Source of the DNA: Minisyncoccota bacterium
GTDB taxonomy: Bacteria; Patescibacteriota; Minisyncoccia; Phycocordibacterales; GWA1-40-21
Reading direction: 5' to 3'
Assembly: GCA_036171775.1 (NCBI GenBank)
Contig: JAVHRR010000021.1
Span: forward strand, 1 to 41,097
DNA: 41,097 nucleotides
The notes under the pieces were generated by a model. The model ran no database searches and had not been told where the DNA came from. It saw only the letters and a program-made list of their open reading frames with translations. Positions 4,930 through 27,524 of this stretch are shown here, in pieces. The position numbers and the translations under genes were made by a program. Positions within the stretch are counted from its first letter, which is position 1. Every line of letters starts with the position of its first letter.

Positions 4930-5086
4930 AGGTCCTCCTTTCTTATAATCTCTTTAAATTATAACATATATATTCTGCTTGTCAAAGTGGGGATGGTGGT
5001 GATTATTTATCAACCTTAGTATTTTATAGACAGATATAGTACTATATTTACTAACCAACTTAGTAGTGTGAGTTTAAAAAACTTCA

Positions 5087-7989: not shown

Positions 7990-8256
7990 TTATAATAATG
8001 AAATTATTTTAGAAGCAAGCTCAGGGAGTTGCGAAGAGATTTTATAATAACATTGTGTATTTCTTTGTTCCTTATCCACCAGGTCGGCTGAAGCTAGTAT
8101 ATCAAGATGTTTTGAGGTTGATTTAAAAGAAAGATTAATCTTCTCGGCTATCAAACCAACGGTCGCCTCTTTTTTATTTTTTAAGAAACTTATGATAGCG
8201 ATACGCCTCTTACTAGCTAATGATTTTAATATTTTTTCAAATTCTTTTGGCTTCAT
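7990..8256 (-). CDS. ArsR/SmtB-family transcriptional regulator
   Basis: LKSLASKRRIAII, TVGLIAEKINLSFKSTSKHLDIL, LVDKEQRNTQCYY. Confidence 0.9.
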   Translation of the reverse strand: MKPKEFEKILKSLASKRRIAIISFLKNKKEATVGLIAEKINLSFKSTSKHLDILASADLVDKEQRNTQCYYKISSQLPELASKIISLL

Positions 8257-8309
8257 AATATTTCAATGTCTAAAGTACTTATTGTTGCTAAAACATTATA
8301 TCTTATATC

Positions 8310-8334
8310 CCTTATTCGCACGAATAGTAGAATA
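8310..8334. repeat. 25-bp inverted repeat, right copy, flanking the ArsR gene
   Basis: CCTTATTCGCACGAATAGTAGAATA. Confidence 0.85.
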
Positions 8335-8392
8335 TATAACCCTTACCCATCACATGACTTACGTTGTCTTTATTCATACCTTTTTACGTAAG

Positions 8393-9382
8393 TTACTGTT
8401 TTTTTAAAAACGAATTTATTATTTTAACTACTTCTTTAGAATTGTTTGTATCCATCAGTTCAATTCTGAGCTCTTTTGCTCGATCAAAACCACTTACATA
8501 TGCCTTAAAGTGTTTTTTCATATTTGCAAAGTTTCTATAATCCAAAAGTTTCTCATAAAGCTTTGTGTGTTCGACAAGAACCTTAAGTTTTTCTTCAGTG
8601 CTTGGTAAACTTTTTCTTTTAGAATCAAAAAACCATGGATTACCGAAAATTCCTCTTCCCACCATTATTCCATCAAATCCTGCATCTTTAGCAAGCTTTC
8701 TTCCCTGTTCCAAACTAAAAATATCTCCATTTGCTATAAGTACAACTTTTTTGTCATGTGCACGAACAACTTTTACAATATCATTTGCTAACTCAAAATG
8801 TGCTGGAACATCAGACATTTCTTTTTTTGTTCTAAGATGAATCGTAAGAGCAGAAATATTTTCAGCTAAAATTTTTGGAAGCCATTTTTTATATTCAATA
8901 GTATTAAAGCCTATTCTAGTTTTAACTGAGATTGGAAGTTTAGGTGCACCAGCTTTTGCAGCGCGAATTATTTCACACGCAAGCTTCGGTGTGTTTATCA
9001 AAGCAGATCCTGCACCTTGTTTTACCACTGACCTATCTGGACAGCCCATGTTGATATCTATCCCATCAAAACCGAGTTTAGATATTATCTGACACGTAGT
9101 TTTAATATTTTCTGGCTTTGCTCCAAATATCTGTGCGATTATTGGTTTTTCAATTTTTGAGAATTTCAAAATAGGTAAAAGCTTTTTTCTGCCTACAATA
9201 TTTGCTATACCGTCTGCAGAAACGAATTCTGTCCAAAAAACATCTGGGCCACCGCCAACTTTTCCATGTCTGCTATATTTTCCGATTATTTGTCTAAAAA
9301 CAATATCAGTAACATCAGCCATTGGTGCAAGACAAAAGAATGGTTTATTTTTTATAATTACTTTTTGCCAAATATTCATCAT
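8393..9382 (-). CDS. dus: tRNA-dihydrouridine synthase
   Basis: LAPMADVTD, TEFVS, IDINMGCP, GAGSALI, SVKTRIG, ANGDI, MVGRG. Confidence 0.96.
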   Translation of the reverse strand: MMNIWQKVIIKNKPFFCLAPMADVTDIVFRQIIGKYSRHGKVGGGPDVFWTEFVSADGIANIVGRKKLLPILKFSKIEKPIIAQIFGAKPENIKTTCQIISKLGFDGIDINMGCPDRSVVKQGAGSALINTPKLACEIIRAAKAGAPKLPISVKTRIGFNTIEYKKWLPKILAENISALTIHLRTKKEMSDVPAHFELANDIVKVVRAHDKKVVLIANGDIFSLEQGRKLAKDAGFDGIMVGRGIFGNPWFFDSKRKSLPSTEEKLKVLVEHTKLYEKLLDYRNFANMKKHFKAYVSGFDRAKELRIELMDTNNSKEVVKIINSFLKKQ

Positions 9383-9433
9383 AAGTCTATCGATACTATC
9401 ACTATTTCTAATTTTTGACCAATTTACTTAATA

Positions 9434-10012
9434 ATGTTATTGTATAATTACATGACTAAAGCAAAGGAACCAAAATTTCAAATACTACAAACCGGAAACC
9501 CTGTCCTAAGAGAGGTCTCTTCTGTCGTTCCTGCCACAAAAATTAAAACGGCTGAAATGAAAAAAATTATTACTTTGCTTAAAAAAACAATCGACAACCA
9601 GAGCGACGCGGCTGCTATCTCTGCAGTTCAGATAGGAAAACCAATAAGACTTTTTATCATATCGAGAAAGGTTTTTGGAACTGACGCAGATGATCCAAAG
9701 GATATAAAGATTAAGAAAGATATGGTTTTTATAAATCCTAAAATTACGAAAGTTTCAAAAGCGAAACAAGAGCTAGAAGAGGGGTGTCTTTCTGTAAGAT
9801 ATGTATACGGAAAAGTTTTGAGACCAGAAAAAGTTACTGTTGAAGCACTCGATGAAAGCGGAAAAAAATTTTCTAGAGGTTTTTCTGGTCTTTTGGCACA
9901 GATAGTTCAGCACGAAAACGACCATTTGAATGGAATTCTATTTATAGACAAAGCTACAAATCTTCAGAAAATCAGTCACGAAGAGTATGTTGAACTTCTT
10001 AAAAACTTATAA
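9434..10012 (+). CDS. def: peptide deformylase (start may be ATG 9452)
   Basis: GNPVLR, AISAVQIG (variant of GLAAPQIG), FINP, EEGCLS, QHENDHLNG. Confidence 0.96.
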   Translation: MLLYNYMTKAKEPKFQILQTGNPVLREVSSVVPATKIKTAEMKKIITLLKKTIDNQSDAAAISAVQIGKPIRLFIISRKVFGTDADDPKDIKIKKDMVFINPKITKVSKAKQELEEGCLSVRYVYGKVLRPEKVTVEALDESGKKFSRGFSGLLAQIVQHENDHLNGILFIDKATNLQKISHEEYVELLKNL

Positions 10013-11792: not shown

Positions 11793-11864
11793 TCCGGAGT
11801 AGCTCAGCGGTAGAGCAATCGCCTGTTAAGCGATTGGTCACAGGTTCGATCCCTGTCTCCGGAG
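11793..11864 (+). tRNA. tRNA-Asn(GTT), CCA not encoded; island integration site
   Basis: TCCGGAG/CTCCGGA acceptor stem, ATCGC-CTGTTAA-GCGAT anticodon arm, GGTTCGATCC T-arm. Confidence 0.97.
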
Positions 11865-11879
11865 CAGTTAGATTTGGTG

Positions 11880-11914
11880 AAAGCGACCTGCCCCCGTCTG
11901 GGTAGGTCGCTTTT
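11880..11914. terminator. bidirectional terminator after tRNA-Asn
   Basis: AAAGCGACCTGCCC...GGGTAGGTCGCTTTT. Confidence 0.8.
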
Positions 11915-12341
11915 ACTTTATTTTGGTCTTATTAGTACCTTTAATCTCTTTCCATGAGTATTGAGTCACTTTACCTTTTTTATCTACAGAAAAAACATAA
12001 AGTAGTAATTTTTTAGCAACTTGCCAAGGAATACGTCGAAGGGCTATTTTTGCACTCACTTCTGGTAACCCTAATGCATAATAATTTCTAGTAGAGCCGC
12101 CGGATTTCATTCTTGTAACAATTTGACCTAGTGAATAAACAAAAGCCACTTCATCTCCCTGTCTTATCTTACCCTCACCTTTTGCTTCTATAAAAAAATA
12201 TCTAGAATATTTAAAATTTTTAGCTTTTATGTCTACTCCATGATCATACAATCCACCGAATTCAAAATGACCCCAACCATTTGCTGATAGCCATTTAATA
12301 ATTGAATGTTTTACAAAATCCTCAGATATTTTTTTATTCAT
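11913..12341 (-). CDS. small PD-(D/E)XK restriction-endonuclease-like protein
   Basis: SEDFVK...GVDIKAK...FIEAKG catalytic pattern. Confidence 0.78.
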   Translation of the reverse strand: MNKKISEDFVKHSIIKWLSANGWGHFEFGGLYDHGVDIKAKNFKYSRYFFIEAKGEGKIRQGDEVAFVYSLGQIVTRMKSGGSTRNYYALGLPEVSAKIALRRIPWQVAKKLLLYVFSVDKKGKVTQYSWKEIKGTNKTKIK

Positions 12342-12404
12342 AATTATTTATTTAAATCTTTCCTTAGCAATAACCTTTCTTGTTAGTTTGTGCTTAGTTT
12401 CGTC

Positions 12405-13319
12405 TTATTTTATAAGATCCACAAATCTTACAACCTTATTTTTACTCCAATCCATAATTTTTACATACCTTCCATTATGTTTATTTGGTCTATTATATTT
12501 ACAACCTTCACACTCATATTTCTCAACTTTACCAGGTATTTCACCGAAGAGTGTTAATTCACTAGGAATAACCTTATTTTCATGACGACAGCTCATAGGA
12601 ACAACATACCTGAGGCCATCCATTTGGAAAATATTCCAACTAATAATTTCGGCAAATTCTTCTTGTATTTTGAGTGTTGGTCGTCCATTAAACTGAGCCT
12701 TGTAATAATCAATAAACGTGTAAAGTAAATTCTCACGCGCAAGTAGAACGTTATCCCCCTGCCAATCATAGCCATAACTTGCCTTAAAGACCTCTTTTGC
12801 CCAAAATATCCATTCTTTTTTATCTTGGCAATATTTCGATAGTATTTTTAATTTTTTATCTAAAAAACCAACACGTTTATTTATTGGAATTATTTTTCCA
12901 GTATGTGCGGTAGTATCATAGCGACTCACTATAAAAGGTGCTTCCCCACACGTAATTTCTAGTTTGAGTTCTTTCACATATTCTTGCCAATTATTTTTAT
13001 CATGTAATTGGTTTTCTACTGCCTTATTAATTTGATTTATAGTTTTAAGTGGTGTAAAAACTTCAGCCTTATCTTTAGTACGGCGACGCTGCTCTTCCAA
13101 GCTCTTGGCTGCACGCGGTTGTATAAGTAATCCATTTTTGCCAGTCACTAGAGCAGGCGCAATACATTTTTTAGATAAATACTCTTTACCGCGCTCTTCA
13201 TACGAATCTGTTGCCCAGATAATATTCTTCTTTGTTGTTTGATCAATAAGCAAAATATCAAGCAAATCACCAGTTTTACGTAGAATATTTTCAAGTATAT
13301 CAATATTTGGCCTATACAT
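12405..13319 (-). CDS. R-M associated methyltransferase-like subunit
   Basis: LLIDQTTKKNIIWATD, RTKDKAEVFTP, LEITCGEAPF (motif I-like), YGYDWQGDNVLLAREN, WNIFQMDGL. No NPPY motif; C-terminal CEGC. Confidence 0.82.
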   Translation of the reverse strand: MYRPNIDILENILRKTGDLLDILLIDQTTKKNIIWATDSYEERGKEYLSKKCIAPALVTGKNGLLIQPRAAKSLEEQRRRTKDKAEVFTPLKTINQINKAVENQLHDKNNWQEYVKELKLEITCGEAPFIVSRYDTTAHTGKIIPINKRVGFLDKKLKILSKYCQDKKEWIFWAKEVFKASYGYDWQGDNVLLARENLLYTFIDYYKAQFNGRPTLKIQEEFAEIISWNIFQMDGLRYVVPMSCRHENKVIPSELTLFGEIPGKVEKYECEGCKYNRPNKHNGRYVKIMDWSKNKVVRFVDLIK

Positions 13320-13324
13320 GATAA

Positions 13325-16300
13325 TTAGTCAAAATAACCAACAATATTCTCCTCAGACTTTTCTTGAATATTCTTCAAAATAAAATTCTTAATTGTGTCG
13401 GGTATTTCATACTTTTTAATTAGTTCAATATCAATTTCCTTAATTGATTTTTTCCACCACGTTTCAGAATAATTCTGTACAGGAACAGCTGCCCAAGCAG
13501 TAGTTGAATGCTGGGAATGCTTATTAAGATATAAGAGTGCTCGTGCGAACTTGGTCATTAAGAATTTTGCGTGTTTTTTTGCATCCGTAATAGTATTGAA
13601 GGGGCCCTGTTCTTGGTAAGTCTCAGTAGAGATTTCATGAGGCTTACCTACTATAACATCAGAATAAGCACCGCCCAGACCTGTACCCTCTGACATATTT
13701 CCCCAAGCATATGGAACAAATACTTTAAATTTATCAAAGGCTTTAGTTTTCCTTGGTATCGGGTAATCCTTTTCTAAGTGACACACCATTCCAGAAAGAC
13801 CGTATAATTTAATGTCGTCTACATTTCGTTTTTCTTTACTTATTGGTGGTAGACAATATTTAGCAGGATCTTTAATTACATCCGTGCGTAAACCATATGG
13901 CTTGAGTACTGATGTAATTGATTGCATAGGAGAAAAGTTATTAAATGCCATGACTATTTTTGCCATTTCTCTAATCTCTTTAGGTTTACTGTCATGATTC
14001 TGCTCGGTTCGAAGTAATGTTATTTGAGGGTTCTTCCCATCTGTATAAATTTTTTGTTTACCTTTTAAGCCGTTGTTATAACTATGCTTCCACAAAATTA
14101 TGTTCGTCCATTCTACTCCGAGGATGCCAGGAAAGACATTCTGCCGATTATCTATAAAGACTATCTGAGGATCTTCCTTGATATCTTTATTATTAAGTAG
14201 CCTTAAATTATTACCGTTCTTGGGGTCCTGCCATCCAGTTGGAAAAATTAACGAAACATTTTCACCAAGCTCACGGCTTGCTAAATAAAAATAAGGGTAA
14301 ATCTGCTGATGATTTTCTCCTTGATATGGGGGATTTCCTACGACTGCTGTAAATTTCATATTTTTTCCAAATTTATTTTTAATTAAATCATACAAAGCAT
14401 TTTGATTTTGAGGCACTAATGTATCTTCGTTCTCAAAATATACAAAGTTCTTTTCTACCTTATACCTAACTTTTTTTAATTCTGGCTGTCCACGCATAAA
14501 GCCAAAAATGTTATCGCTAGATATTTAATGTAATATTTTTCTTGGCGCAAAACCGTAAACTTGGTGCGTTAATATATGTTCCAAGCGTTTATACTTATTG
14601 GGTATTTGGCGCTCTAAATTATTATACAGCCTTTTGACTATTTCAGTTATAAACAACCCTGATTTCATGTATGGATCAAAGAATGTGTGGTCTTTAGATT
14701 TAAATATGCCTGGATTCTGCTTTTCAAGGATATCGATTATTATCTTAACAACAGGTTTTGGAGTGTATATCTGGTTAGTTTGCTGCGGAGGGATATAATC
14801 AAAGATATCTAAACCGCTATCATTTTCATAATAATTTGCTAGCTCTGCTTTACGACTTAAAAATTCAGCAATTGAGGCATTAAAGACTTCTTCATTAAAA
14901 AGGTTATGCTTATCACGCAGTTCTTGAAACTGTTCTTTGGTAATACCGACAAGTTCTTGAAAGGTTGTGGAATCTATATATTTTTCAAAATTATCGAGTT
15001 TGGTATCTGGCTTACCGTATGCCATCAAAATCATTGGAATAGCACGGGCAAAGTAACGCAGGTGATCATGAATTGAATTCTCTTGTTCAATTTTTTCCTT
15101 ATCGGCCTGTTTTTCGAGCTTTATTTTTGTATCTGAAGGGGGTAAGTCATCAATAGTTGGAAGTCGATCTGTTGGTATATCTGGGTTGTCTTGTATTAAT
15201 TCCTCATATTTTTTCTTACCCAAGATTGATTCATTTAGAATAAGATTACCATCATCGTCGTACTCCAATTGTGGCTCAGTTATAGGATTTTTGTTTTTAT
15301 CATGTTCCACACGCCCTTTTTTAATAGTACCCATTTCATTCAATATCTCTCGAGCGCTAGCGGGCAGATGAAAAATATTGCCAATGTTGAAAAGTTTATT
15401 TGAAGTAATAAATTTTCCGTCAACGATCTCCTGTGTCATCAACTTAAGAGGCATAGTAACAACCTCGTTGGCATCGAGCTCTTTCATCTCACCGTATTCA
15501 TCTTCAGCTACCACAGTCAAGAAGTTGAGTAATTTTTTTACCTTATCTTTAGCTCCTTCGCCACCTCCGATAACACTCTTGGCGTAATCTTGAAATATAA
15601 GCAATAGTCTGTCTGGTGCAAAGTCAAATACATAACAGTTTTCTTTTACCATGTCATTACCACCTTCATCCTTGTAACGCCAAGGATTTTGTCCGCGGAA
15701 AGCAGCTTGAAGATACTTGGTGGCAGAAGTCTTACCACCCTCAGCACCATAAAGCATCAATACCGCAGTCCACGGCTTTACAGTTACACCAGTTGTAAGT
15801 TGACCACATGAAAGTGTGATAGTTTTTGTTTCAAGTGATTTTTTATCCTCTCCAATAATTTTTTTGATCTTATCTAGTGCGGTTTTACCTTCATGTTCAG
15901 TATCACCCTTAGCAGCAGCATCAATAATTTCATAATCTGCAAAAATCTTGCGTGAAGGAGTGTTCTCCCCCTGCTCCTGCATGAGTTTTTTAAGTGCTTT
16001 TACTGCAGAAACACCCGGTAATAGCCAAAATGTATGTCTAAGTTCATCACGAATTTCTCTATCAGCGAACGGGAAAGGTCGAGCACTTTGGTTATTTTTA
16101 CTGTTAATGCCAAACATATTATCTAGAAACTTTAATACCATTTCTTCATATACAAACTTGGTCTGTGAGGTCTTAAACAGTTCGTTGAGATCAAATGCGT
16201 ATTCACCATCGGCAACAGTGGCATTGAGTGTTTTAGAAAGTCTGTATGCAAACATATTCATGCGAGGAAGTTCGTAGTAAGGATTTTCGCCATCAGTCGG

Positions 16301-17353
16301 ATCCCAGTTTTCCTTGGCAGATTGTTCATCCTCGTAAGTCCAGTTAAAGATTTGTTTGGTATTGAATTTTTTACTTGTTAGTGCCTTAAACGGTGTACCT
16401 GAAAGATGGAGCGTAAAGTCAGCACGCAGATTTTTAAAAAGTTTATAAGCGTTTTCAGTTTCGGTCGCTTCATGACTTTCGTCTATAATGAAGAGATCCC
16501 AGGATTCATTAAAAATCCATTGATTCTTTTGCTTAAAAGCTTCGGAATTATCCGTCTCTCTACCTTTAATATCCTGCAATGATATAAAAAAAATCGTTGA
16601 CTCTCCATTTTTTATGGTAGCTTTAGTTTCACTAACATTTAGCGCACGACCTTGTAGATTACCTCCGGTAGTAATGTGCTTATTGTCTTTTGTAGAACCG
16701 AACTTAAAGATTCCTTTAGGTTGAATAAACTGTCGATAATCTGTATACCAAGAGTCAGAAATAGCTGGACGATTTGTGACAATAAGTACTTTTTTGGCAT
16801 TAATTTTCTCGGTGAACCAGTAACTAGTTAAAGTCTTTCCAAACCGTGGCTTAGCATTCCAAAGAAATTCACGCTTCCCATTGAGTGAGTTATTCCAATA
16901 TGCATAAGTTTGATCAATAGCATCCTGTTGTTCATCGCGAGGCTTAACGCTCAAGTCAATTTTATTTAGAATATCAGTATCAAAACCTTTCAAGTTTTTG
17001 CGTGCTTCTATGGCTTCGATAGCTTCCTTTTTTGTCATTTTATACCATTCCGAAAAACGTTCACTTTTAGAATTTTTCTTTTTCTCACGCTCATACTTTC
17101 CAGTAGCGTCAATTATCGCATGAACTTCATAATCACGGAATGATTTGCCATTTTTATCAATTGCTTCAGTTGTATAGAGTGTTTCCGCTTTAATATTATC
17201 AGCTTCATTTTGATCTTTAACACGACCAGAATTAATACCGGTTTGGTCACCAATTTTTAACCAACCTAAATGTTCTTTACTATCAGGGTGATGATAGACA
17301 TAAATTACTTTTTTCTCCTTACCTGTAGCTTTGATACTATTCATATAAATCAA
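13325..17353 (-). pseudogene. fused restriction-modification enzyme (nuclease, SF2 helicase, N6-adenine MTase, TRD; Eco57I-like), interrupted by one in-frame TAA at 14525-14527
   Basis: ORFs 14525-17353 and 13325-14497 are in the same frame, joined as ...FAPRKILH*ISSDNIFGFMRGQ. Upstream part has YVY..LKIGD (GIY-YIG/T5orf172-like), AKPRFGKT, DESH and FFDPYMKSG; downstream part has VVGNPPYQ. Confidence 0.82.
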
Positions 17354-17515
17354 ATATTTAGGCTCTTTTTGCCATAATTTGATTAAATTCTAGCATACTT
17401 ACTTATCAAAAAACAGTCGTTTGTCACAACTAAATTTTCAAAAAATAAATTAAATTACTTTTTTGTCACAACAAAACTAGATCGAGAGCGAATTTTTATC
17501 TCAATAATGTATAAA

Positions 17516-18832
17516 TTAATAATAAATTTTTTTATCCTTAATTTTTAACCTACTTTTTAGACATTTTAGTAATTCTCTCTTTGCTTCTCGTGTACCATTT
17601 TTAAGTATATGCTTGGTATAATTTCTTACGTCTGCATCAATAGGTTTATTATCAAATTCTGTTTCTTTACCCAGAACCATGTAACTAAATTGTTGATATT
17701 TTTGGATTTCTTTTTGTATTTCTTCTTTTATTCCTATTTCATCAATATCTATCTTGTCTATGATCTCTAATAGTTGAATTACAAGATCTTCTTCTCTTAT
17801 TGTTTTTTCTTTACAGTACCTATCTGCTCCATGAGTGCAATGATAATATACATATCGATGGGTTTTCCCATTTTTGCAGTGTTTAAATTTTTCTTCTGCA
17901 CTTATACCCGAACCACAAGCTCCACAGAAAAATAGTCTGGTAAAATCAAATTCGTTTGTTCCAGGATGTCTGCGCGGTGGAGCTTCTAAGTTTGCCCGGG
18001 CTTTTAAATACAATTCTTTTGTAATAATTGCATCGTGAGCACCTCTATACCATTTTCCGCTTTTCATAGGATATTCAAATTCACCATAATAATAAGTTTC
18101 CTTAAGAGTTGTGTAAATAATACTCAAGACAATTCTTTTACCTGATCGTGTTGTAAAATTTTTTTCTTTATTTAACCATGTAAGTAAGTCTCTACCGCTA
18201 ACATTGTCGAAAGCAACTTTTTCAAACATTTCTTTTATTATAGGGGCTCGTTCGGGATCAATGAGGACTCTTTTCTTTCCTTTGTCAGCATACTTATCAT
18301 GTATATATCCAAGCGGTGCCATTCCCGGTCTATATCCTTGTTCGCATTTAGCTCTTAATCCCCTTTTTACATTTTCCCCTTTATGATCGTTTTCTAGTTT
18401 TGCCTGTGAACACAAAATCATTAAAAGAAATTTCTCATTTGGAGAATTTGTAAATCTCTGGCCATGAGTTCTTATATCGATCATCTTTCCTTGATCCATA
18501 AGGTCAACAATTTGACCAAGATCTCCTGCATTACGACTTATTCTTGAAGGATCCCAAGCAATTATTCCATTAAACCTGCCTGATTTAATATCAGCTATAA
18601 GTTCTTGATATACAGGTCGTTGCCCTGAGTCCTTGGCTGAGTGAGATTCCATTTTGACCTCAACTACATTAAGTCCTTCTTTGGTCGCCATATCCATCAT
18701 TTCTTTGACTTGAGAGTCAATAGATAATGCCTGCAGCTCATCTTGCTCTGATGATTTTCGTGCATAAAGGCAGTATCTGGTAGGTACTACGACTTTTGGT
18801 ACAAATACTCGTTCTTGCAACTGAGTTTCCAT
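17516..18832 (-). CDS. large serine recombinase (resolvase, recombinase and Zn-ribbon domains)
   Basis: YCLYARKSSE..Q..SIDSQ, ESHSAK..GQRPVY, SRISRN, GYRPGMAPLGY, HDAII, FCGACG...YYHC...C. Confidence 0.95.
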   Translation of the reverse strand: METQLQERVFVPKVVVPTRYCLYARKSSEQDELQALSIDSQVKEMMDMATKEGLNVVEVKMESHSAKDSGQRPVYQELIADIKSGRFNGIIAWDPSRISRNAGDLGQIVDLMDQGKMIDIRTHGQRFTNSPNEKFLLMILCSQAKLENDHKGENVKRGLRAKCEQGYRPGMAPLGYIHDKYADKGKKRVLIDPERAPIIKEMFEKVAFDNVSGRDLLTWLNKEKNFTTRSGKRIVLSIIYTTLKETYYYGEFEYPMKSGKWYRGAHDAIITKELYLKARANLEAPPRRHPGTNEFDFTRLFFCGACGSGISAEEKFKHCKNGKTHRYVYYHCTHGADRYCKEKTIREEDLVIQLLEIIDKIDIDEIGIKEEIQKEIQKYQQFSYMVLGKETEFDNKPIDADVRNYTKHILKNGTREAKRELLKCLKSRLKIKDKKIYY

Positions 18833-18892
18833 ACATCAATCAATGACGCATGCCATCTAGTAAGTCTAGGTCTTAAAAGTTGATAATTATGC

Positions 18893-19579
18893 CTATTTCA
18901 GGTCTTGTTTTAATGCAGTTAATATTAATCCAGCCTCAACGTCTAAAGTGTCATCTATAACATTAGCTGGTATATGTTTAATATTTATATATTTAGGTCC
19001 CAAAGCAACAACGGGTCTTAACATATTTATCTGTGCTCTTTTAAAATCATTATCCAGTAGATGTTCAAGTTTTTTAAAAAAAGAATTGATACTTTTTTTG
19101 TATGAATCTATTCCATATACTTTCGATTCAATTCCTGTATTTATTAATTTAATAGTACTGTCAAAAATAAACGTCGGTTCAAATTCAACTGCTTCTAATA
19201 AAGAATTAAACTTTTTGCATGCAGAAACCGCAATATCAATTTGTTGTGATAACGTAAAGTTTATTCCTTTCTTTAAAACAAAGATTCTTTCTTCATTGAT
19301 ATAAACTTTATTAAATTTAGAATGCTGAAATACATGAAATTTTTTATCTTTTTTATCCAAATCTAAATTTTTGCGTACACTGGAAATATAATCGATTAAA
19401 TCTTTAACGGATTCTTCTGCGTCACGAGAAATCATAAGGAACATATCTTCAATTTCTTTTTTGTTGTTTTTTAGGCACTTATTTTTTTCATATAACTCCT
19501 TTAAATACCAAAGTGTGAGCGATGAAAAAATTGCTAAAAATGATCCTATTAATGCCTGATATTCATTTATAAATTTCAT
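18893..19579 (-). CDS. hypothetical protein with an N-terminal TM helix
   Basis: 228 aa; YQALIGSFLAIFSSLTLWYL; third gene of the RT operon. Confidence 0.75.
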   Translation of the reverse strand: MKFINEYQALIGSFLAIFSSLTLWYLKELYEKNKCLKNNKKEIEDMFLMISRDAEESVKDLIDYISSVRKNLDLDKKDKKFHVFQHSKFNKVYINEERIFVLKKGINFTLSQQIDIAVSACKKFNSLLEAVEFEPTFIFDSTIKLINTGIESKVYGIDSYKKSINSFFKKLEHLLDNDFKRAQINMLRPVVALGPKYINIKHIPANVIDDTLDVEAGLILTALKQDLK

Positions 19580-19595
19580 AGTAAATAATAATTAT

Positions 19596-20327
19596 TTATA
19601 ACTTTAACGTCTTCTTCTTTTCCCTACTGCCAAATATGTCCATAATTATATTTCCCACTCGACTTAGTGTAATATTAATACCACCTCCATCAACCTCAGC
19701 TTTATATTTGCTTGAATTAGGATTTTCACGTAATTTTTTATAATCATCCTCATCATCAACCCTAACATCCACAGGCTCGTATTCTAAATCAAACAGACCA
19801 GAGCCTATCAAACCTCTAACGTCTTCACTGTTCATAAAATCTTTTGCTTTATTCAAAAACCACTGTAAATCATAATTTGTTATTTTTTGAAGAACATTAG
19901 AAGTTTTTAAAAAATCATCATAACTAATTTTACCGTTAACAAAAAACTTAAAAACGTTCGCGACTCTTTCGGAATTTTCGAAATCATTGCAACTATCTAT
20001 AATGTAAAGCAATTTTTCCCCAACTTTAACTCGATATTTTTTAGATTCATCAATCTCTTTTATTATTTTATTTCTATCCTCAACAGAAACATTCTTTAAA
20101 CCATTCAGAAAAGAGATAATTTTCTTCAAAAATAATTTATCATGTATATTAGCACCGAGCTTTGTAATTCCTATTACAGTTCCAACGATAGGCAAACTCT
20201 GAACAGTTGGATCTTTAATAATTGAATCTAAAGCTAACTCTGTAATATCAATAGCAATTCCTTTTAAATCGGTATCTTTTAGTGTTGAATCAAAAGATTC
20301 TTGTATTGTAATATTATTGTTTTCCAT
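19596..20327 (-). CDS. hypothetical helical protein (possibly Abi-alpha/DUF4393-like)
   Basis: 243 aa; starts 12 nt after the RT stop; LPIVG...DKLFLKKIISFL pattern. Confidence 0.75.
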   Translation of the reverse strand: MENNNITIQESFDSTLKDTDLKGIAIDITELALDSIIKDPTVQSLPIVGTVIGITKLGANIHDKLFLKKIISFLNGLKNVSVEDRNKIIKEIDESKKYRVKVGEKLLYIIDSCNDFENSERVANVFKFFVNGKISYDDFLKTSNVLQKITNYDLQWFLNKAKDFMNSEDVRGLIGSGLFDLEYEPVDVRVDDEDDYKKLRENPNSSKYKAEVDGGGINITLSRVGNIIMDIFGSREKKKTLKL

Positions 20328-20339
20328 ATATAACCTAAA

Positions 20340-21989
20340 TTATTTTTTTGATTGTTTTATCAATTGTCTATATCCAAAAACACTAATAATTTTATATAGT
20401 GGTATTTCTTTTTGCTTACCATTATTTACTAAAAAAATTGTTTCATCATTAAGAACTATTTTGCTTTTATTTATATCAAAAAATGATTCAATCAACCAAT
20501 TAGACTTATATTTTTTAATAATCTTATTTGTTATTTTTTTATCTATCTCTAGCTTACATCTTCTAGTAATATACAAAGTCCAAATTAATGGAAAAATTTC
20601 GTCTTTTTCTAGAAAGCTTTCTATAAGTCTTACTAAATAATCTTGAATACATGTTTTAACTTCTTTGTTAGAAGTTCCTTTATAACAATAGTAAATAAAT
20701 GCTAAAAACGATGGCCACGCACTAGGAACTAGTTTACACAACGTACTAAAATGTGAAAAAACTGCAATATAATTTTCTTCAATATCCACCAAGTGTGGGT
20801 TTGCATCTGTTACTTTCTTTTTTATTTCTATTTTTTCGATACCTTCTCTTATAAAGTACCCGAGGATGGCTTTTATTATATACTGATCTTTGTACTTTTT
20901 ATAAAGGTCACGAGTAGTTTTTAACCAAAAAATTATATCCGATTCATCTAATTCAAAAATCTTTTCTTTTTTATTAAGTTTTTGATCAATTTCATTTTTA
21001 ATTTGTTTAAGTTCCACTTTCCAATACTTTGTATCTTCAAGTGAATCTACGTCGGAACAAAAAGTTTTGTCGTCATTTACGCCTAGGTGGTACTCATCGA
21101 GTATTTTTTGCATTTCCATCCGAATTTTATCAGCCAAATCCTGATTCTTTGTCAAAAAAACATAATCATCCTTAAATCTAAAGCCAATGTATTTATTACT
21201 TTGTTTAATAAATTTTTTTGAAAGTTCTTTGTCGATTGATCTTAACAATATTTCAGAACTAAAGTCTGATGTATATGGACCGATAAGAATACCTTTAGTT
21301 CTATTTCTGTTCAACTTTCTTGTTAATTCATCGAGCTTATTTGCTGGATAATTATAATTATGAAATTTACATTTATCACGCCCTTTGCATAAACATGTAT
21401 TATCATGACGTGTTCTTTTGTCCAATGCCCATGCAAGTGAATGGACATAAATACTTGGATAAAAATCTTTTATATCGAGAAAAACACAATGAGTATAGTC
21501 TCTTAGCAATGACTGTAGATCAATTTCTGATAGTACCTTGTGATTACTAATACCAATTTCTGATCTTTTTTTGCCTTCAATAAAAAGAGGTACACTATAG
21601 GGAATTATATTATCTTTTTTTTCATCTAGCGTTAAATGTTTTTTAAATATTTGCCAATTTTCTGAAACAAATTTCGTTAAATAAAGATGATTTATAAAAG
21701 GTGGAACAGATAAAGTTCTTAGTGTATATTTTGTTTTTGGAAAATACAATAAAGTTGGTTTGCCGTCGGGAATATATTTTGAATAATCAATTTTTTTAAG
21801 ATATTTTTTAACAGATGCGTTTTTAGCTAATCCGCATGAAAGAAAAAAATCTGACGGCAGAAATTGTTCCTCTGGAAAATAACCGTCATTAATAAAATAG
21901 TCAGAAATTTTTTCTTTAGTTAATTTATTAAGGTTATTATTTATTTCATTAAACCTCTTATTCTTTGTTTTAATGGTGTAACTGCTCAT
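20340..21989 (-). CDS. UG/Abi-type (defence-associated) reverse transcriptase with an alpha-helical C-terminal region
   Basis: GYFPE, FPKTKYTLRTLSVP, LDIKDFYPSIYVHSLAWAL, GILIGPYTSDFSSEI, FRFKDD, LGVNDDKT. Start is ATG 21989 or TTG 21995. Confidence 0.9.
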   Translation of the reverse strand: MSSYTIKTKNKRFNEINNNLNKLTKEKISDYFINDGYFPEEQFLPSDFFLSCGLAKNASVKKYLKKIDYSKYIPDGKPTLLYFPKTKYTLRTLSVPPFINHLYLTKFVSENWQIFKKHLTLDEKKDNIIPYSVPLFIEGKKRSEIGISNHKVLSEIDLQSLLRDYTHCVFLDIKDFYPSIYVHSLAWALDKRTRHDNTCLCKGRDKCKFHNYNYPANKLDELTRKLNRNRTKGILIGPYTSDFSSEILLRSIDKELSKKFIKQSNKYIGFRFKDDYVFLTKNQDLADKIRMEMQKILDEYHLGVNDDKTFCSDVDSLEDTKYWKVELKQIKNEIDQKLNKKEKIFELDESDIIFWLKTTRDLYKKYKDQYIIKAILGYFIREGIEKIEIKKKVTDANPHLVDIEENYIAVFSHFSTLCKLVPSAWPSFLAFIYYCYKGTSNKEVKTCIQDYLVRLIESFLEKDEIFPLIWTLYITRRCKLEIDKKITNKIIKKYKSNWLIESFFDINKSKIVLNDETIFLVNNGKQKEIPLYKIISVFGYRQLIKQSKK

Positions 21990-22149
21990 ATTCAATAAAG
22001 TATTCTATATACAAAATATGATCTTTAAGACTGCTAAAATTTAGTCAAAAATACTGTTGACAACCCCACTTCGCAAGGCACTCAACTTAAGCTAAGGTAT
22101 AGCACAATATCGTTTTTTACGATAGAATATCAATACAATTAAATAAAAG

Positions 22150-22340
22150 ACGGCCTAACCCCTTTAGTTTACTAGAGGATATGGTTGCAAACCCCGCTAG
22201 AGAATAAAGAACTCCTCGTCAGAGTCACTCTAGCGGGTCATATCTGGAAACGGGTATGGGTGGGGCCGAAAGGTTTCATCGCGATGGCGGGGAGCTCTTT
22301 GTTCACGAAGACTCTTCTCATTGCTAAAACCCGCTAGAGT
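22150..22340 (+). ncRNA. structured leader / c4-like antisense RNA candidate
   Basis: 20-bp closing helix (22202-22221 with 22285-22304), two GAAA-capped hairpins, and internal ACTCTAGCGGGT complementary to both upstream and downstream CCCGCTAGAG. Confidence 0.65.
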
Positions 22341-23414
22341 ATGTCAATAATAATTTCAACTAATGGCGATAAGGCTGTTAGATTAGATAAAACTTCTTTT
22401 GATAAAGAGAAGTTTCTCCAAGAATATATTTATAAGAATCCTGAAAGTATTCCTCTTTATGATATTAAAGAAGATATCAGATTACTTGTTTTGGCTCGCG
22501 AATTTAGAACTGAAAGTGGACCGATTGATGCCATCGGTATAGATGGATCAGGAGAACTATACATAATCGAAACAAAACTCTACACAAATGCTGATAAAAG
22601 AAATGTTATTGCTCAAGCACTAGATTACGGAGCATCTCTTTGGAATCATTCAAACGATTTTAATGAATTTTTGGCCACTTTAGATGAACATACACAAAAA
22701 GTATTTAAACTTAAAACAATAGAAAAGATTAAAGAGTTTTTTGGACTAACAGACGAAGATGTTCAGTTAGTGATAGAAAAAGCCAAGAGTAATCTTAACG
22801 ATGGAATCTTTCATTTCGTTGTTTTAATGGACAGAGTAGACGATAGACTCAAAGATCTTATACGTTTCGTAAACCAGAACAGTCAATTTGATATCTATGC
22901 TGTTGAATTTGAATATTACAAACACGAAAAACAAGAAATCATTATTCCTAAGATATTTGGTGCAGAGGTAAAGAAAGATATCGCAGTAAGTAGCTCTTCA
23001 TCAGGTGAAAGAAGAAAGTGGAATGAGGAGTTACTTCTCGCAGATGCAAAAAATAATTATTCTGACAAAGAGTACACAGCTTTCAAAAAGATTTATGATT
23101 TCTCAAAAGAAAAGGCGGATTATGTTAAGTATGGAACAGGTAATAAGTACGGATCATTTAATCCAGTGTTCGAGAAAATATGTTCAAGATCTCTTTATAC
23201 TTTGGGTACGGATGGAAGGATGTCATTTAACTTTGAATGGATTAAAAACAACGATATACAAGAAGTGGAGTTTATAGATAAGTATGCGAAAGCCATGAAG
23301 GATATTGGTTTTACTATTCCAGATAATTATAGAGAAGTTCGTCCAAGTGTCCTATCTGACGAATGGGCTAACAGAGCAGATGAATTTATTAAAGCAATCA
23401 GGAGCCTAATATAG
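22341..23414 (+). CDS. PD-(D/E)XK nuclease with a NucS/EndoMS-like nuclease domain
   Basis: EKFLQEYI, AREFRTESGPIDAIGIDGSGELYIIETK, RNVIAQALDY. Confidence 0.82.
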   Translation: MSIIISTNGDKAVRLDKTSFDKEKFLQEYIYKNPESIPLYDIKEDIRLLVLAREFRTESGPIDAIGIDGSGELYIIETKLYTNADKRNVIAQALDYGASLWNHSNDFNEFLATLDEHTQKVFKLKTIEKIKEFFGLTDEDVQLVIEKAKSNLNDGIFHFVVLMDRVDDRLKDLIRFVNQNSQFDIYAVEFEYYKHEKQEIIIPKIFGAEVKKDIAVSSSSSGERRKWNEELLLADAKNNYSDKEYTAFKKIYDFSKEKADYVKYGTGNKYGSFNPVFEKICSRSLYTLGTDGRMSFNFEWIKNNDIQEVEFIDKYAKAMKDIGFTIPDNYREVRPSVLSDEWANRADEFIKAIRSLI

Positions 23415-23895
23415 ATTGCTTTTCCTCATTGGTTAAATTATCATCTTTTTCAGAAAAATCAGTAATTATAAATTCAGTAGGTTTTTTTCCTTGTTTGGCT
23501 TGTTCATTTTCTTTTCTAAATTTTTCCATCTGATCTTCTGTTAGTTTTCTTGTTATTACTTCTATAGCAATTTTTCTTACTATTTCTGAGTCTTCAAAGA
23601 ATACATTTTCCATTCTTGGTTTAACATATCTCTTACAATTTCCACCTAACCAATACTTCATTGCCCAAGGTTCACCCTTAGTAGCTTGGCTTATCAATTT
23701 ACTTTCAACCAAGTCAGTTACAGAATCTCTGCCTCTCCAAAGACATTCGTCCATGTCGTCTGCAAAATTTTCCACTGTTTCTCTCCATTCATAAATAGTA
23801 GATTTTGCTATACAAGCTCTTTTTGCAGCAATTGATACGTTTGGGATTTCCTCGAGTATCTCCAGAAATTTTTTTCTTTCATTAGGCGTTTTCAT
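23398..23895 (-). CDS. HTH protein resembling a phage terminase small subunit
   Basis: KFLEILEEIPNVSIAAKRACIAKSTIYEWR...FADDMDE, DLVESKLI...GEPWAMKYWL; overlaps the methylase 3' end. Confidence 0.72.
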   Translation of the reverse strand: MKTPNERKKFLEILEEIPNVSIAAKRACIAKSTIYEWRETVENFADDMDECLWRGRDSVTDLVESKLISQATKGEPWAMKYWLGGNCKRYVKPRMENVFFEDSEIVRKIAIEVITRKLTEDQMEKFRKENEQAKQGKKPTEFIITDFSEKDDNLTNEEKQSILGS

Positions 23896-25219
23896 TTAAT
23901 TTAATAGCTTTTTTCCCAGTTAGATTTTCCCATCTCTTTTTTATTACTTCTGCATAGATGGGACACTTTTCCATGATGTAACATCTTCTTTTTAGCTTTG
24001 TTGCAGCTATAAGAGTAGAACCACTTCCACCAAACGGTTCAACTATAAGATCATCTCTCTTTGTTAAGACTTTGATGTATGGGATCAGAATTTCTATTGG
24101 TTTTGTTCCAAAGATAATTCCCTGCCCAGATGATTTTTCATCTGAAGCGATATTCTCTATGAAATCTGTAGGACAAATTTTCTTTCCAGCCTCATAACCT
24201 TCCCAATGAGGTTTACCAGACGTAGCAAATAATGCGGTCTCATATTCTTCTTGAAGTAATGGTTCATTTTCTGGTTCCATATTTAGTTCTACAGTTCCTG
24301 AACTACCAACAATTGCAAAGTCGTGTTTGTTAAAGAATTTATACTTAGCAGAAAATCCCTGAACTCTATTTGGAATGTGCCAGATAATTGTATTTCTATA
24401 TTTCCAGTGCTTTTCTAATTCATTCCATATTAATCTGAGATTTTTTGGATTCTCATAAATAATAATTGAAAAATCTGGTTTTTGAATCTTTGCCATATTG
24501 GCCATCCATAGTTCCGTAAAGTTATCAGGTAATGTTTCTGTTCCAATATAAACTCTGTCTCTCTTGTGACCAAAACCCGATGTAACTTCCCCATTCTTTT
24601 TCTTCTTTCCTTTTAAGTAATCTAAAACATAAGGGGGGTCTGTGAAGACCATACTAGCCTTTTCTGTTCCCATGAGTTTGAGTACATCTTCCTCCTTCAT
24701 GGAGTCACCAACGAGCAATTTAGAGCCATCTAGGTCATACATATCGCCTGTTTTAGCTTCTATTTCGCCAATTTCCATCTTAGCTAGTTCTTTCTCAATA
24801 TCGAACTCTTCAGGAACATCTTCGACTGCAAAAATGTCATCGATCTCTTCACTTGAGAATCCTACGTTAGATAATATGTTTTCATCAAACTCTGATAACA
24901 AATCTAGATCCCATTCACCTTGGTTCTTATTTAATCTCATATTCAACTCTTTTTCTTTTTCAATCGTAAGATCAACATAAACAACAGGCATTTCCTTAAA
25001 ACCAATCTCTTTACATACTTCTAATCTGAAATGTCCACCAATTACAATATTTTTTCTTTCACTATTACCGTTTGTAATAATTGGGTCAACATTTCCGAAT
25101 CTTTTTATGCTTTCTGTTAAATCTTTCTTTTGTTCTTCATCCCATTTTCTTGGATTGTATTCAGATGGAATTAATAAACTAATATCTACATACTCTATTT
25201 TTAAATTTTCTTTATTCAT
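23882..25219 (-). CDS. ParB/Srx-N domain fused to an N6/N4 DNA methyltransferase (phage-type)
   Basis: LIPSEYNPR, IGGHFRL, LLVGDS, FTDPPY, TKPIE, EPFGGSGSTLIA. Confidence 0.92.
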   Translation of the reverse strand: MNKENLKIEYVDISLLIPSEYNPRKWDEEQKKDLTESIKRFGNVDPIITNGNSERKNIVIGGHFRLEVCKEIGFKEMPVVYVDLTIEKEKELNMRLNKNQGEWDLDLLSEFDENILSNVGFSSEEIDDIFAVEDVPEEFDIEKELAKMEIGEIEAKTGDMYDLDGSKLLVGDSMKEEDVLKLMGTEKASMVFTDPPYVLDYLKGKKKKNGEVTSGFGHKRDRVYIGTETLPDNFTELWMANMAKIQKPDFSIIIYENPKNLRLIWNELEKHWKYRNTIIWHIPNRVQGFSAKYKFFNKHDFAIVGSSGTVELNMEPENEPLLQEEYETALFATSGKPHWEGYEAGKKICPTDFIENIASDEKSSGQGIIFGTKPIEILIPYIKVLTKRDDLIVEPFGGSGSTLIAATKLKRRCYIMEKCPIYAEVIKKRWENLTGKKAIKLNENA

Positions 25220-25239
25220 TTTTGTAATTTAGTACTAAT

Positions 25240-25310
25240 AAAAAAACACCTAGACACGAGTCCGTATTTTCATACAGGCTAATGTCTGGGCGTTCCAGAC
25301 GATGCTCTTC
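25240..25310 (-). promoter_or_regulatory. terminator/attenuator hairpin in the methylase leader
   Basis: Minus strand AACGCCCAGACAT...CTGTAT-GAAA-ATACGG...GTGTCTAGGTGTT plus U-tract; upstream GTCTGG can pair with CCAGAC instead. Confidence 0.55.
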
Positions 25311-25329
25311 TAATTGTACTAACTTAAAC

Positions 25330-25596
25330 TTATTGTATTTGTATTATTTCAGAATAACTAGCGATAAGGATTTTCATTTTACATTGAGGACAAGTGATGG
25401 AAATTTGAGATGGATTACCCGGTATCTCTATGTAGGTAAATTGTGGAGACTCTGATCTTCCACCAACCATCATTTGTATTCGGTCATTCCTTAAATCTTT
25501 CTTATATAATAATTTGCCACATTCGCAAGTATTTTCACTCCAAACTGAGCCATCTTGATGTTTAATATGTTTAACTCCGGGAGTTCTATTCTGCAT
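25330..25596 (-). CDS. zinc-ribbon protein, Mu Com-like
   Basis: TCECGKLL...ISITCPQCK; probable start ATG 25596; directly upstream of a DNA methylase. Confidence 0.65.
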   Translation of the reverse strand: MQNRTPGVKHIKHQDGSVWSENTCECGKLLYKKDLRNDRIQMMVGGRSESPQFTYIEIPGNPSQISITCPQCKMKILIASYSEIIQIQ

Positions 25597-25830
25597 GTGA
25601 TTAATTATTATGCTTATAAATGATACCTCCATATTTTCGACAAAATACTTAATATCATCAATACTAATTTTACGCGGGTTTTCTAATAAAAGAAGACCCG
25701 ATCTTTAAAGCAAACCAAAAATATTAGGTTGTAAAGCTCACCGTCACAAAATGACAAAATTAAAGGGTTTATTAGCAGAAATAAAGCAAAAAGTGACATT
25801 ATAACACCATTTTAAGCCATATTTTATATG

Positions 25831-26391
25831 CTATTTAGATAACTCTTTGTACATTTTTTGTATACCGTTTTCATCTAAATACTCACTTATAAAAAATTTT
25901 TTATCTTTATAATCAAAAGCTTCTTTCTTTTGGGGGTTTATCCAAATAAAAAAATTATAACTATTATCACCATAGGAAATTTTATATTTTTTAGCCAACT
26001 TTCTTATTACTTTAGTTGGAATAGCAATTGTGTGTGGTTTTAAAGTTCGTCTGCCTATTTTTGATGATTCACTTATCACATAAATTAAAAAAATAAAATA
26101 ATCCGCGGTTGAATTATCGATTACCTTTTTTGGAAAGAAAAACCATCCACCAGATCCATCACCGTGGTTTTTTGATTCTTTTTCTTTTGGTTCGTAAGCC
26201 CTACTTCCTTTTACTTGTATAGAAAGCAATTTTTTAGTTTTTGTATTTACTAGCATCAAATCAATATCTTTCATTTGTGCATTAAGAGGCATAAAAACAT
26301 CTATATTTTTATTGTGGGCGTCTCTTAGTATACCTGTGACAACAGCTTCATCTGTATTTAAACTCCAAAAATTTTTATATGCTTTTCCCAT
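25831..26391 (-). CDS. PD-(D/E)XK nuclease-like protein
   Basis: DEAVV...KDIDLML...SIQVKGSR, ADYFIF. Confidence 0.75.
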   Translation of the reverse strand: MGKAYKNFWSLNTDEAVVTGILRDAHNKNIDVFMPLNAQMKDIDLMLVNTKTKKLLSIQVKGSRAYEPKEKESKNHGDGSGGWFFFPKKVIDNSTADYFIFLIYVISESSKIGRRTLKPHTIAIPTKVIRKLAKKYKISYGDNSYNFFIWINPQKKEAFDYKDKKFFISEYLDENGIQKMYKELSK

Positions 26392-26444
26392 ATATCAATA
26401 TCATATCACAAAATTTTGTTTCAGTTTTTTTACCAAAATAATAA

Positions 26445-27350
26445 TTAGAATTCTTTTTTTAAACTTAATTTCCCTTCAAATTTGGTTGCGGTCCATCTTT
26501 TATAATGTTTCTTAAATGAATCATTGATTGGGTTGTCTGCAAAAGGGTTATTTACAAAATAACAATCATCACCAATATCATCTGGATGACTCGAAACTAA
26601 ATTATCTGAAAACAAAACACCACTTACAAAACTAAATTCATTATTTGTAAAATAATCTACTAAAACTGGCTCGTTGTTAGTTTTATTAATACTATTTCGG
26701 TGCGTATAATTTGTTTCCCCAGTTTTTATATTAATACTCATAAACTGGAAACCGAATAGGGCTTTTATAATATTTGGCATATTCGAATCCTCAACATGCT
26801 GTAAATCTGCTGTATTCAATGCAATAATAAAAGACATCTTATTATTAAACCAGCTTTTACTTTTCCATTTTTCATATTGATCTAATGCCTTACTTTTTAT
26901 TGCCTGTGTAATACGTAAGATCATTTGATCTGTTGGTACATTCATGACACGTATTTCCTGTGGCGTTTTAGCCACATACATTTCTGGAACAGAATCTGAT
27001 TTTATTGAATCTCCTTTTGTTGGGGCAACACACTCAATATAAATTGACTCATCTATAATAAAATCTGGACCTTCGTCTTTGGAGCTTATTATAGTTGCAT
27101 CTTTAAGTAATATGTTGCCAACATACATCTCCCATGACCTTTGATGAAAATTTATTTTAATTTGATCTTTAAAATGCGTGTCCGCATATGGTTTATAATT
27201 TTTCCATAATTTATCAAATTTTTCTCGGTATTTTTTTAAACTAGAACACACTATAAAATATGGATCATATTGAGGGTATTTTTCTTTTAATTTCTCTACT
27301 TCGCTACTTTCTACTACTGGAAGTTCATCTATAAAAATTGAATCGCTCAT
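26445..27350 (-). CDS. hypothetical protein with a PD-(D/E)XK-like motif
   Basis: FHQRSWEMY, EGPDFII..IYIECVAP, FVNNPFA. Confidence 0.72.
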   Translation of the reverse strand: MSDSIFIDELPVVESSEVEKLKEKYPQYDPYFIVCSSLKKYREKFDKLWKNYKPYADTHFKDQIKINFHQRSWEMYVGNILLKDATIISSKDEGPDFIIDESIYIECVAPTKGDSIKSDSVPEMYVAKTPQEIRVMNVPTDQMILRITQAIKSKALDQYEKWKSKSWFNNKMSFIIALNTADLQHVEDSNMPNIIKALFGFQFMSINIKTGETNYTHRNSINKTNNEPVLVDYFTNNEFSFVSGVLFSDNLVSSHPDDIGDDCYFVNNPFADNPINDSFKKHYKRWTATKFEGKLSLKKEF

Positions 27351-27524
27351 TTTGCAATATTACCACGCAGTGTCCGATTTGTCCGATTCTTGTCAAAAAA
27401 GCTATATATTACTTTGACTCAAAGTGACCTGTTTGCATCCCGATCTAGCTTCAAAAGTAGCTGGAAAAGCCTCGCAACATCTCGAAGGTCTTGGTCCTGA
27501 ACCTGTATGGGGAGCAGTTAGTAC

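Follow-up and report, generated by a model that had tools for sequence, protein, structure and literature searches.

The window analysed here, the whole 41,097-nucleotide contig JAVHRR010000021.1 of a Minisyncoccota bacterium (assembly GCA_036171775.1), carries a cassette of three co-directional genes, the first of which encodes a reverse transcriptase (RT), while the following two are named ORF2 and ORF3 after their open reading frames (ORFs). Judged from its sequence, the window RT is a Class 1 UG/Abi enzyme from a small clade of its own, with about 10 sequences, whose sister group comprises UG14 and Abi-P2-like RTs. The explanation that we favour, with moderate confidence, is that this enzyme is a stand-alone, protein-primed defence RT with which ORF2 and ORF3 are stacked as independent cargo. 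Support for this explanation comes from the intact Class 1 RT, from its position on a mobile island among defence-type genes and from the occurrence of its relatives inside restriction-modification (R-M) operons.

AbiK and Abi-P2, which are found on lactococcal plasmids and in P2 prophages, respectively, oligomerise, prime DNA synthesis on protein, make untemplated single-stranded DNA (ssDNA) and act by abortive infection. By analogy with these enzymes and with DRT4 and DRT6, the window RT would be an anti-phage enzyme of Class 1 that needs no further gene; it would oligomerise, start DNA synthesis from a residue of the enzyme itself and make untemplated ssDNA, which would stay attached to the protein and would be made without a non-coding RNA (ncRNA). 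The ssDNA product would do harm, to cell or phage, only once a phage factor upsets its turnover during infection, with abortive infection as the outcome. ORF2 and ORF3 would be separate cargo of the same defence hot-spots, stacked behind the RT, and the block would have been acquired as a unit, between the genes for a serine recombinase and a nuclease-like protein, on an island at a tRNA-Asn gene.

The assignment of the window RT to its class is supported by several profile collections. Pfam RVT_1 matches it with 34.3 bits, above the cut-off of 29.6, and its best PADLOC profile is RT_UG14 (7.3e-58, 194.6 bits), in which profile positions 4-490 of 493 are aligned with residues 11-540, so that the C-terminal tail is included in the match. 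The Drt6/UG12 profile is second (4.1e-55, 185.6 bits) and is followed, in order, by the weaker Drt4, AbiP2 (7.6e-30), UG31, Drt3b, UG30 and AbiK (3e-17) profiles; the NCBIfam Drt4 model gives 120.5 bits, below its cut-off of 450. The tail that follows the RT domain is predicted to be a C-terminal alpha-helical repeat (alpha-Rep)-like region, and residues 405-489 align weakly with the C-terminal repeats of DRT4 in a search of solved structures. The best matches in that search are a maltose-binding protein (MBP)-fused RT (9wy8; E 2.5e-37) and UG15/DRT4 chains (E 5e-27), and the AbiK/Abi-P2 entries 7r08 and 7r06 of the PDB are matched as well. No RNA family of Rfam is found on the strand of the RT. 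A C-terminal alpha-repeat domain is reported to be required in Class 1 RTs, among which UG12 and UG14 are defence-associated (PMC9226505). The motifs that a first-pass annotation, made from the letters of the window, had named in the RT (FYPSIYVHSLAW, GILIGP and FKDD, the last as FRFKDDYVF) are all present, and its description of the protein as a UG/Abi RT of AbiK/DRT-like type, with a helical tail and no assigned subgroup, agrees with the PADLOC profiles and with the tree described below. In the clade alignment, residues D276 and D277 do not vary, and LDIKDFYPS and GILIGP are also visible.

Relatives of the window RT are few and well separated from the remaining RTs. A word-indexed search of 5.8 billion proteins gave seven relatives at 39-47% identity, all of them metagenomic, and an exhaustive HMMER search of 1.84 billion representatives gave 2442 proteins in total at E <= 0.001, headed by seven own-clade representatives at E <= 2.5e-68 that are followed by a gap to 2.5e-36. 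Viral contig scans contained no RT relatives, and the matches in a plasmid collection are at most 30% identical and cover the RT domain only. When the relatives were scanned with PADLOC, which gave scores for 55 of the 90 scanned proteins, nine own-clade members scored 157-217 bits on both RT_UG14 and Drt6, with RT_UG14 as the better profile for five and Drt6 for four. True UG14 members (24 sequences) score 353-724 bits on RT_UG14, compared with 194.6 for the window RT, and true Drt6/Drt4 members (seven sequences) score 342-645 bits, the Drt6 members among them 420-575, compared with 185.6.

In a tree built by an IQ-TREE quick search (LG+G4, 59 rows, rooted on two Drt3b sequences), the 10 rows of the own clade form one group, with a support of 100 in the SH-like approximate likelihood-ratio test (SH-aLRT) and a stem of 0.66. 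This group is sister (SH-aLRT 99) to a group that consists of UG14 and Abi-P2-like sequences, and Drt6, Drt4 and UG30 lie outside. The score of the window RT is thus below the range of UG14 members, and monophyly with UG14 is not recovered; for DRT6 (UG12) and DRT4 (UG15) it misses the score range or the cut-off, and the rows of these groups cluster elsewhere. Because its profile scores are below the member ranges and its clade is separate in the tree, the window RT is placed in none of the profiled groups. We found no literature on UG14-like RTs beyond one paper (PMC9226505), whose tables of groups and neighbours could already include this clade.

Motif C reads R-F-[K/R]-D-D-Y invariantly across the own clade and RFKDDY in the window RT. 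The first-pass annotation had taken FKDD as a distinguishing feature, a view that is not borne out, because FKDD is the normal motif C of UG14. In a regular-expression scan of 158 related RTs, FKDD was motif C in 30 of the 103 with a recognised motif C, and these 30 are essentially true or near UG14 members that read RFKDDYR[I/F]; the scan missed the own-clade sequences, whose motif C was read from the clade alignment. Since FKDD is common to UG14, it is no peculiarity of the window RT. The residue on which DRT4 primes is reported to be Tyr125 (PMC12783706). The stretch IMNYED that holds this residue aligns with ISNHKV of the window RT, in which His takes the place of Tyr, and seven clade members read H/H/Y/F/Y/H/F at this position. 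Four of eight aligned clade members, including the window RT (residues ~197-216; columns 198-224 of alignment A1), have a Cys/His-rich insert, which may be a zinc knuckle, after the SLAWALD motif, and the other four lack it.

Among known systems, UG14 is the nearest, because it provides the best PADLOC profile over the whole length, shares the RFKDDY motif C, the length and the domain order, and belongs to the sister lineage. However, the window RT is only ~30-36% identical to UG14 members, mainly in the first 300 residues, and its clade lies outside UG14 and the Abi-P2-like RTs. UG14 is a predicted defence gene for which we found no published mechanism. DRT6 (UG12) and DRT4 (UG15) have the same class and architecture as the window RT, which probably shares their mechanism, but their motif C is Y[VI]DD in place of FKDD, and the position of DRT4 Tyr125 is occupied by His here. 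DRT4 and DRT6 are reported to make untemplated, protein-linked ssDNA with no need for an ncRNA (PMC12783706), and synthesis of untemplated DNA is also reported for Class 1 DRTs (10.64898/2026.05.04.722794). The step that follows in DRT4 is debated, toxic accumulation of ssDNA being proposed in one paper and an effector RNase in a 2026 preprint (10.64898/2026.10.21.760695). The combination of an RT with a helical C-terminal domain, without an ncRNA, is also common to the window RT and AbiK/Abi-P2, although the sequence similarity is much weaker, and the present enzyme comes from a tiny-genome environmental bacterium and has relatives in type I R-M operons.

The gene neighbourhood of the own clade was examined at two loci (L007 and L008). 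In L007, the start of the RT gene overlaps the stop of hsdM, and the contig ends after the RT. The gene order in L008 is RadC, NYN, Phd/ParE, hsdR, hsdM, RT, a 218-amino-acid protein with a hydrophobic start, hsdS and DUF3800. Homologues of ORF2 or ORF3 were detected by phmmer in neither of the two loci, and the 218-amino-acid protein that follows the RT in L008 is unrelated to ORF3, as determined by hhalign. The RT of L008 (8001-9600) is split into overlapping ORFs at 8130-8597 and 8554-9600, which reflects either a frameshift or a sequencing error. Both RT relatives, as well as the ORF2 homologues in four loci (L010, L011, L012 and L014), occupy the slot between hsdM and hsdS in which other defence genes are carried by type I R-M operons; the window cassette differs in that it lies outside any hsd operon, next to the gene for a serine recombinase, and a helicase-methylase restriction gene is 1.5 kb away.

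ORF2 belongs to no family in Pfam, PADLOC, NCBIfam or PHROGs, and the same result was obtained with 39 members of its family at E <= 1. It has 275 homologues, of which those with source names are from Patescibacteria (the nearest named) and Bacteroidota, and genome loci add Omnitrophota, Gammaproteobacteria and others; the stretches LFLKK and KVGEKLLYIID are conserved (alignment A2). Its predicted fold, with a predicted local distance difference test score (pLDDT) of 83, consists of an N-terminal helical domain and a small C-terminal domain made of a helix and a beta-hairpin. A Foldseek search with this fold gave no match in the PDB at E <= 0.001, and in a wide VIA-align search the best Z was 4.7, with residues 148-239 only weakly winged-helix-like (Z 3.3-4.2). 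Atlas look-ups for the cassette proteins returned unnamed clusters only. Two leads towards Abi_alpha (PF14337, formerly DUF4393), namely the source name on homologue P0028 and an Atlas cluster at 0.81 with 25% of its members in that family, were not reproduced: the Abi_alpha profile matched none of the 39 ORF2-family members at E <= 1, and it found nothing in five genomes that hold ORF2 homologues, but nothing in 14 control genomes either. A complex prediction for the RT and ORF2 had a score of 0.00 without controls and counts neither way on binding.

The contexts of the ORF2 family were surveyed in 37 other loci, 30 of which come from the viral and genome collections (among the loci listed) and seven from 400 Bacteroidota genomes. 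One of the seven shares its contig with L024, near-duplicates and contig-end loci account for several of the 37, and most are distant relatives (27-42% identity). Because the genome loci are those among the matches listed, closer ones may have been missed. A Class 1 RT stands beside the ORF2-family gene in one of the 37 (L016) and an ORF3-like gene in none; the protein that follows ORF2 in L014 is unrelated to ORF3. In addition to the four loci with ORF2 between hsdM and hsdS, the neighbours include an Eco57I-type enzyme (L036), a set of SNF2, DUF4391 and methylase genes (L013), Gabija-like genes for an OLD-type ATPase and a UvrD helicase (L009), HD-CE/HATPase and PD-(D/E)XK genes (L018), PIN (L019), Schlafen (L020) and BrnT (L015) genes, and resolvase, integrase and plasmid Rep genes (L025, L031 and L032); in L017 and L024, ORF2 lies beside housekeeping genes. 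Outside syntenic genomes, no neighbour family recurs among the loci examined. The family is a candidate stand-alone defence gene or R-M accessory gene. The fallback view of the first-pass annotation, that the neighbours of the RT may be independent cargo, is now the favoured one, and its suggestion that they might be new partners is not supported: ORF2 and ORF3 occur in neither own-clade RT locus, and the counts of a Class 1 RT or an ORF3-like gene beside ORF2 are those given above.

Viral contig scans yielded two near-identical ORF2 loci, and a phage collection contained no match to ORF2. Homologues of the N-terminal domain of ORF2 are carried by small Empedobacter plasmids and by non-mobilizable Klebsiella plasmids of ~110 kb. 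One of them, on a Klebsiella IncFIB plasmid of 111,674 bp (L049; 4016-4627), has an FRG-domain gene and an IS1 transposase as neighbours, and similar matches to this domain are found in 89 plasmid records, mostly of non-mobilizable enterobacterial plasmids.

ORF3 has nine relatives, all at 44-62% identity but for a truncated one that reaches 69% across two thirds of the length, and its conserved stretch is SQQIDIA (alignment A3). The predicted model (pLDDT 87.5) shows a long N-terminal helix running into a four-helix bundle, and a fold search with it returned only generic or designed helical bundles, with Z up to 12.4. The protein has a single N-terminal hydrophobic segment (residues 8-26), as expected from the earlier description of a transmembrane (TM)-anchored third protein, but the Kyte-Doolittle mean of this segment is only moderate (1.47), and for this reason a membrane anchor is plausible and not proven. 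No match to ORF3 was found in the phage and plasmid collections or in 400 genomes from the phylum. Among 400 genomes from the same order, four of which belong to the same genus, it was likewise not found, the sole other match being one of 18.4 bits over 34 residues, and the viral contigs contain one doubtful match (L002; hhalign probability 45%). No contig size is common to the listed relatives of the RT, of ORF2 (120 of the 275) and of ORF3, which is an indirect hint that the relatives of the three proteins lie on different contigs.

The three genes behave as one block in composition and in gain and loss. All three ORFs are intact and co-directional, and their positions and the gaps of 12 nt (RT/ORF2) and 16 nt (ORF2/ORF3) given in the first-pass annotation agree with the ORF list; the protein-database form of the RT is the one of 549 amino acids that starts at the ATG (Table 1). 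ORF3 is followed after 60 nt by the serine recombinase gene on the same strand. No terminator-like sites were found within 17300-22500, promoter-like sites show no excess (23, compared with a mean of 26.7 in shuffled sequence), and no flanking repeats were found around the 3.4-kb cassette. The GC contents of the three genes are 26.5, 29.1 and 26.6%, compared with 33.7% in the rest of the island. In another genome of the same genus, G715, the recombinase gene (66% nucleotide identity) and the nuclease-like gene (81%) are divergent and 334 bp apart, without the cassette. The cassette is spanned over its whole length by contigs of four groundwater sequencing runs, all from one study that may have supplied the window. 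Cassette-less variants suggested by contig joints were rejected, the joints being single, short-sided and from one run.

The source genome (759 kb in 50 contigs, 92% complete) contributes several housekeeping genes to the window, namely def, fmt and the genes for a hibernation factor, DNA polymerase III delta-prime and YceG. These bacterial genes, together with the Patescibacteria as the nearest named sources of ORF2 relatives, suggest a bacterium of the candidate phyla radiation (CPR) type. Four genomes of the same genus share the stretch def-fmt-hpf-tRNA-Asn up to window position 11866. In one of these, G404, the island site is empty and the sequence resumes 21 bp later at window position 27534, and an 11-bp direct repeat, GGAGCAGTTAG, bounds the island at 11861-11871 and 27511-27521; the empty site and the repeat together define the extent of the island. 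Its content comprises the helicase-methylase restriction gene, the serine recombinase gene, the cassette, the PDC-S11/NucS-like gene, a small-terminase-like gene and a ParB-methylase gene.

Table 1. Positions in the window of the cassette genes and of the features around them.
Feature	Position	Strand	Remarks
tRNA-Asn	11793-11865		Insertion site of the island
Genomic island	11861..27521		~15.7 kb; inserted at the 3' end of tRNA-Asn
Large serine recombinase gene	17516..18832	(-)	Pfam Resolvase, Recombinase, Zn_ribbon_recom; PHROGs phrog_95 integrase, 3.6e-59
Cassette block	18767..22134		3.4 kb; three genes and ~140 bp upstream of the RT; GC 27%; missing from the G715 island
ORF3 gene	18893..19579	(-)	228 aa; rare protein
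ORF2 gene	19596..20327	(-)	243 aa; member of a large unnamed family
RT gene	20340..21995	(-)	551 aa from TTG; 549 aa from ATG at 21989
PDC-S11/NucS-like gene	22341-23414		LOOT RNA just upstream

Several points weigh against a stand-alone RT with independent cargo. The joint presence or absence of the three genes relative to G715, their shared low GC content and the tight gaps without a terminator are also expected of a functional operon. The evidence on gene context comes from only two own-clade RT loci and from the ORF2 loci. In the Omnitrophota genome of L016, an ORF2 homologue directly follows a different, Abi-P2-like Class 1 RT; the order at 1019-5645 is DUF6119, a 147-amino-acid ORF, the RT (511 amino acids, YRDD) and the ORF2-family gene 16 nt downstream. 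The groundwater runs also contain extra contigs with at least 90% likeness over ~19255-19851, which spans the ORF2/ORF3 junction, that diverge from the window on both sides. As to protein priming itself, the alignment shows that the DRT4-type priming Tyr is not conserved in the clade, so that the priming site, and with it protein priming, is putative.

The same signs of an operon, together with the recurrence of RT-ORF2 adjacency with another Class 1 RT in L016, would be explained by a true three-gene defence system in which the RT senses infection or makes DNA, ORF2 is an adaptor and ORF3 is a membrane effector. Such a system would resemble the multi-gene Class 1 systems that pair an RT with transmembrane or nuclease partners, and Class 1 groups are reported to pair with SLATT, NUDIX-TM, HEPN and other partners, which can be accessory (PMC9226505). 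This possibility deserves consideration but is unlikely, in view of the absence of ORF2 and ORF3 from both own-clade RT loci, the rarity of an RT and the absence of an ORF3-like gene beside ORF2 in the other loci, the lack of a shared contig size among the listed relatives and the unrelatedness to ORF3 of the proteins that follow the RT in L008 and ORF2 in L014. In its most developed form, which we consider doubtful, the three genes would constitute a new three-component Class 1 UG/Abi system of CPR-like bacteria, in which DNA made by an RT without the DRT4-type priming Tyr is read by ORF2, a protein of new fold with a possible winged-helix end, which then activates the membrane-anchored four-helix bundle of ORF3 to stop the infected cell; if this were true, ORF2 would be an adaptor that can move between systems and would also work with the type I R-M, Gabija-like and Abi-P2-like RT genes beside which it occurs. 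A combination of a stand-alone RT with a separate ORF2-ORF3 pair, in which a soluble protein would sense or regulate and its partner would be anchored in the membrane, is improbable. It is suggested by the 16-nt gap between the two genes and by the extra junction contigs with different flanks, from which the pair may exist elsewhere, and ORF2 has about as few relatives at the closest level (55-75% identity) as ORF3 has in all (nine), so that a pairing specific to a sub-family is possible. On the other hand, none of the 37 other ORF2 loci, which are distant relatives, has an ORF3-like neighbour, the listed ORF2 and ORF3 relatives share no contig size, and the run contigs come from the one study that may have produced the window. 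Finally, the position of the cassette directly upstream of the co-directional island recombinase gene without a terminator, together with the split RT of L008, could indicate a role outside defence, such as island maintenance, transfer or control of the recombinase, or the presence of decaying passengers. We regard this as very improbable, because the three ORFs are intact, the catalytic residues are invariant in the clade and the RT relatives sit in R-M operons, while the nearest families, UG14 and UG12/DRT6, are reported to be defence-associated or shown to defend (PMC9226505); moreover, the G715 island keeps the same recombinase without the cassette, which indicates that the recombinase does not need it.

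With the RT described here, the Class 1 UG/Abi tree gains a small lineage that is well separated from the others. It comes from environmental bacteria with tiny genomes, a group whose defence RTs have been little studied, and it extends FKDD active sites of the UG14 type beyond UG14. A clade without a conserved DRT4 priming Tyr also offers a natural case in which to test where protein priming begins in Class 1. ORF2 is now defined as a widespread family without a name, whose members repeatedly occur between hsdM and hsdS in type I R-M operons and near other defence genes. The present view of the way in which such RTs work is unchanged by these findings.

Other parts of the island and of its insertion site contain further elements. 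A LOOT RNA (RF03000) is found at 22152-22277 on the (+) strand, with 73 bits compared with the Rfam gathering score of 46.4. It was considered as an ncRNA of the RT and rejected, because it is on the opposite strand and inside a segment that is 81% identical in the RT-less G715. Since this segment is shared with G715 without the cassette, the LOOT RNA goes with the nuclease-like gene and not with the RT.

On the other side of the cassette, at 13325-17353 (-), an ORF of 942 amino acids for a T5orf172/ResIII helicase and an ORF of 390 amino acids for an Eco57I-type methylase are in the same frame, with a stop between them (junction near 14497-14540). All contigs of the four groundwater runs differ from the window at 14511, 14526, 14534 and 14540, and with their bases the region becomes a stop-free stretch of 1354 amino acids; in the window, this type IIG/ISP-like restriction gene may be a variant or may have been misassembled. 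In another genome of the genus, G518, the tRNA-Asn gene (L040; 3708-4339) is split at the anticodon by 555 bp, and this insert matches a group I intron model with 47.7 bits, compared with a gathering score of 50, and an E-value of 8.5e-11. The distal part of the island, at 23398-25219 (-) and 25831-27350 (-), contains a small-terminase-like helix-turn-helix (HTH) gene (phrog_4044, 1.7e-6), a fusion of ParB with an N6 methyltransferase (phrog_498, 1.2e-76) and unknown genes. The terminase-like and ParB-methyltransferase genes hint at a phage-derived or satellite-like element.

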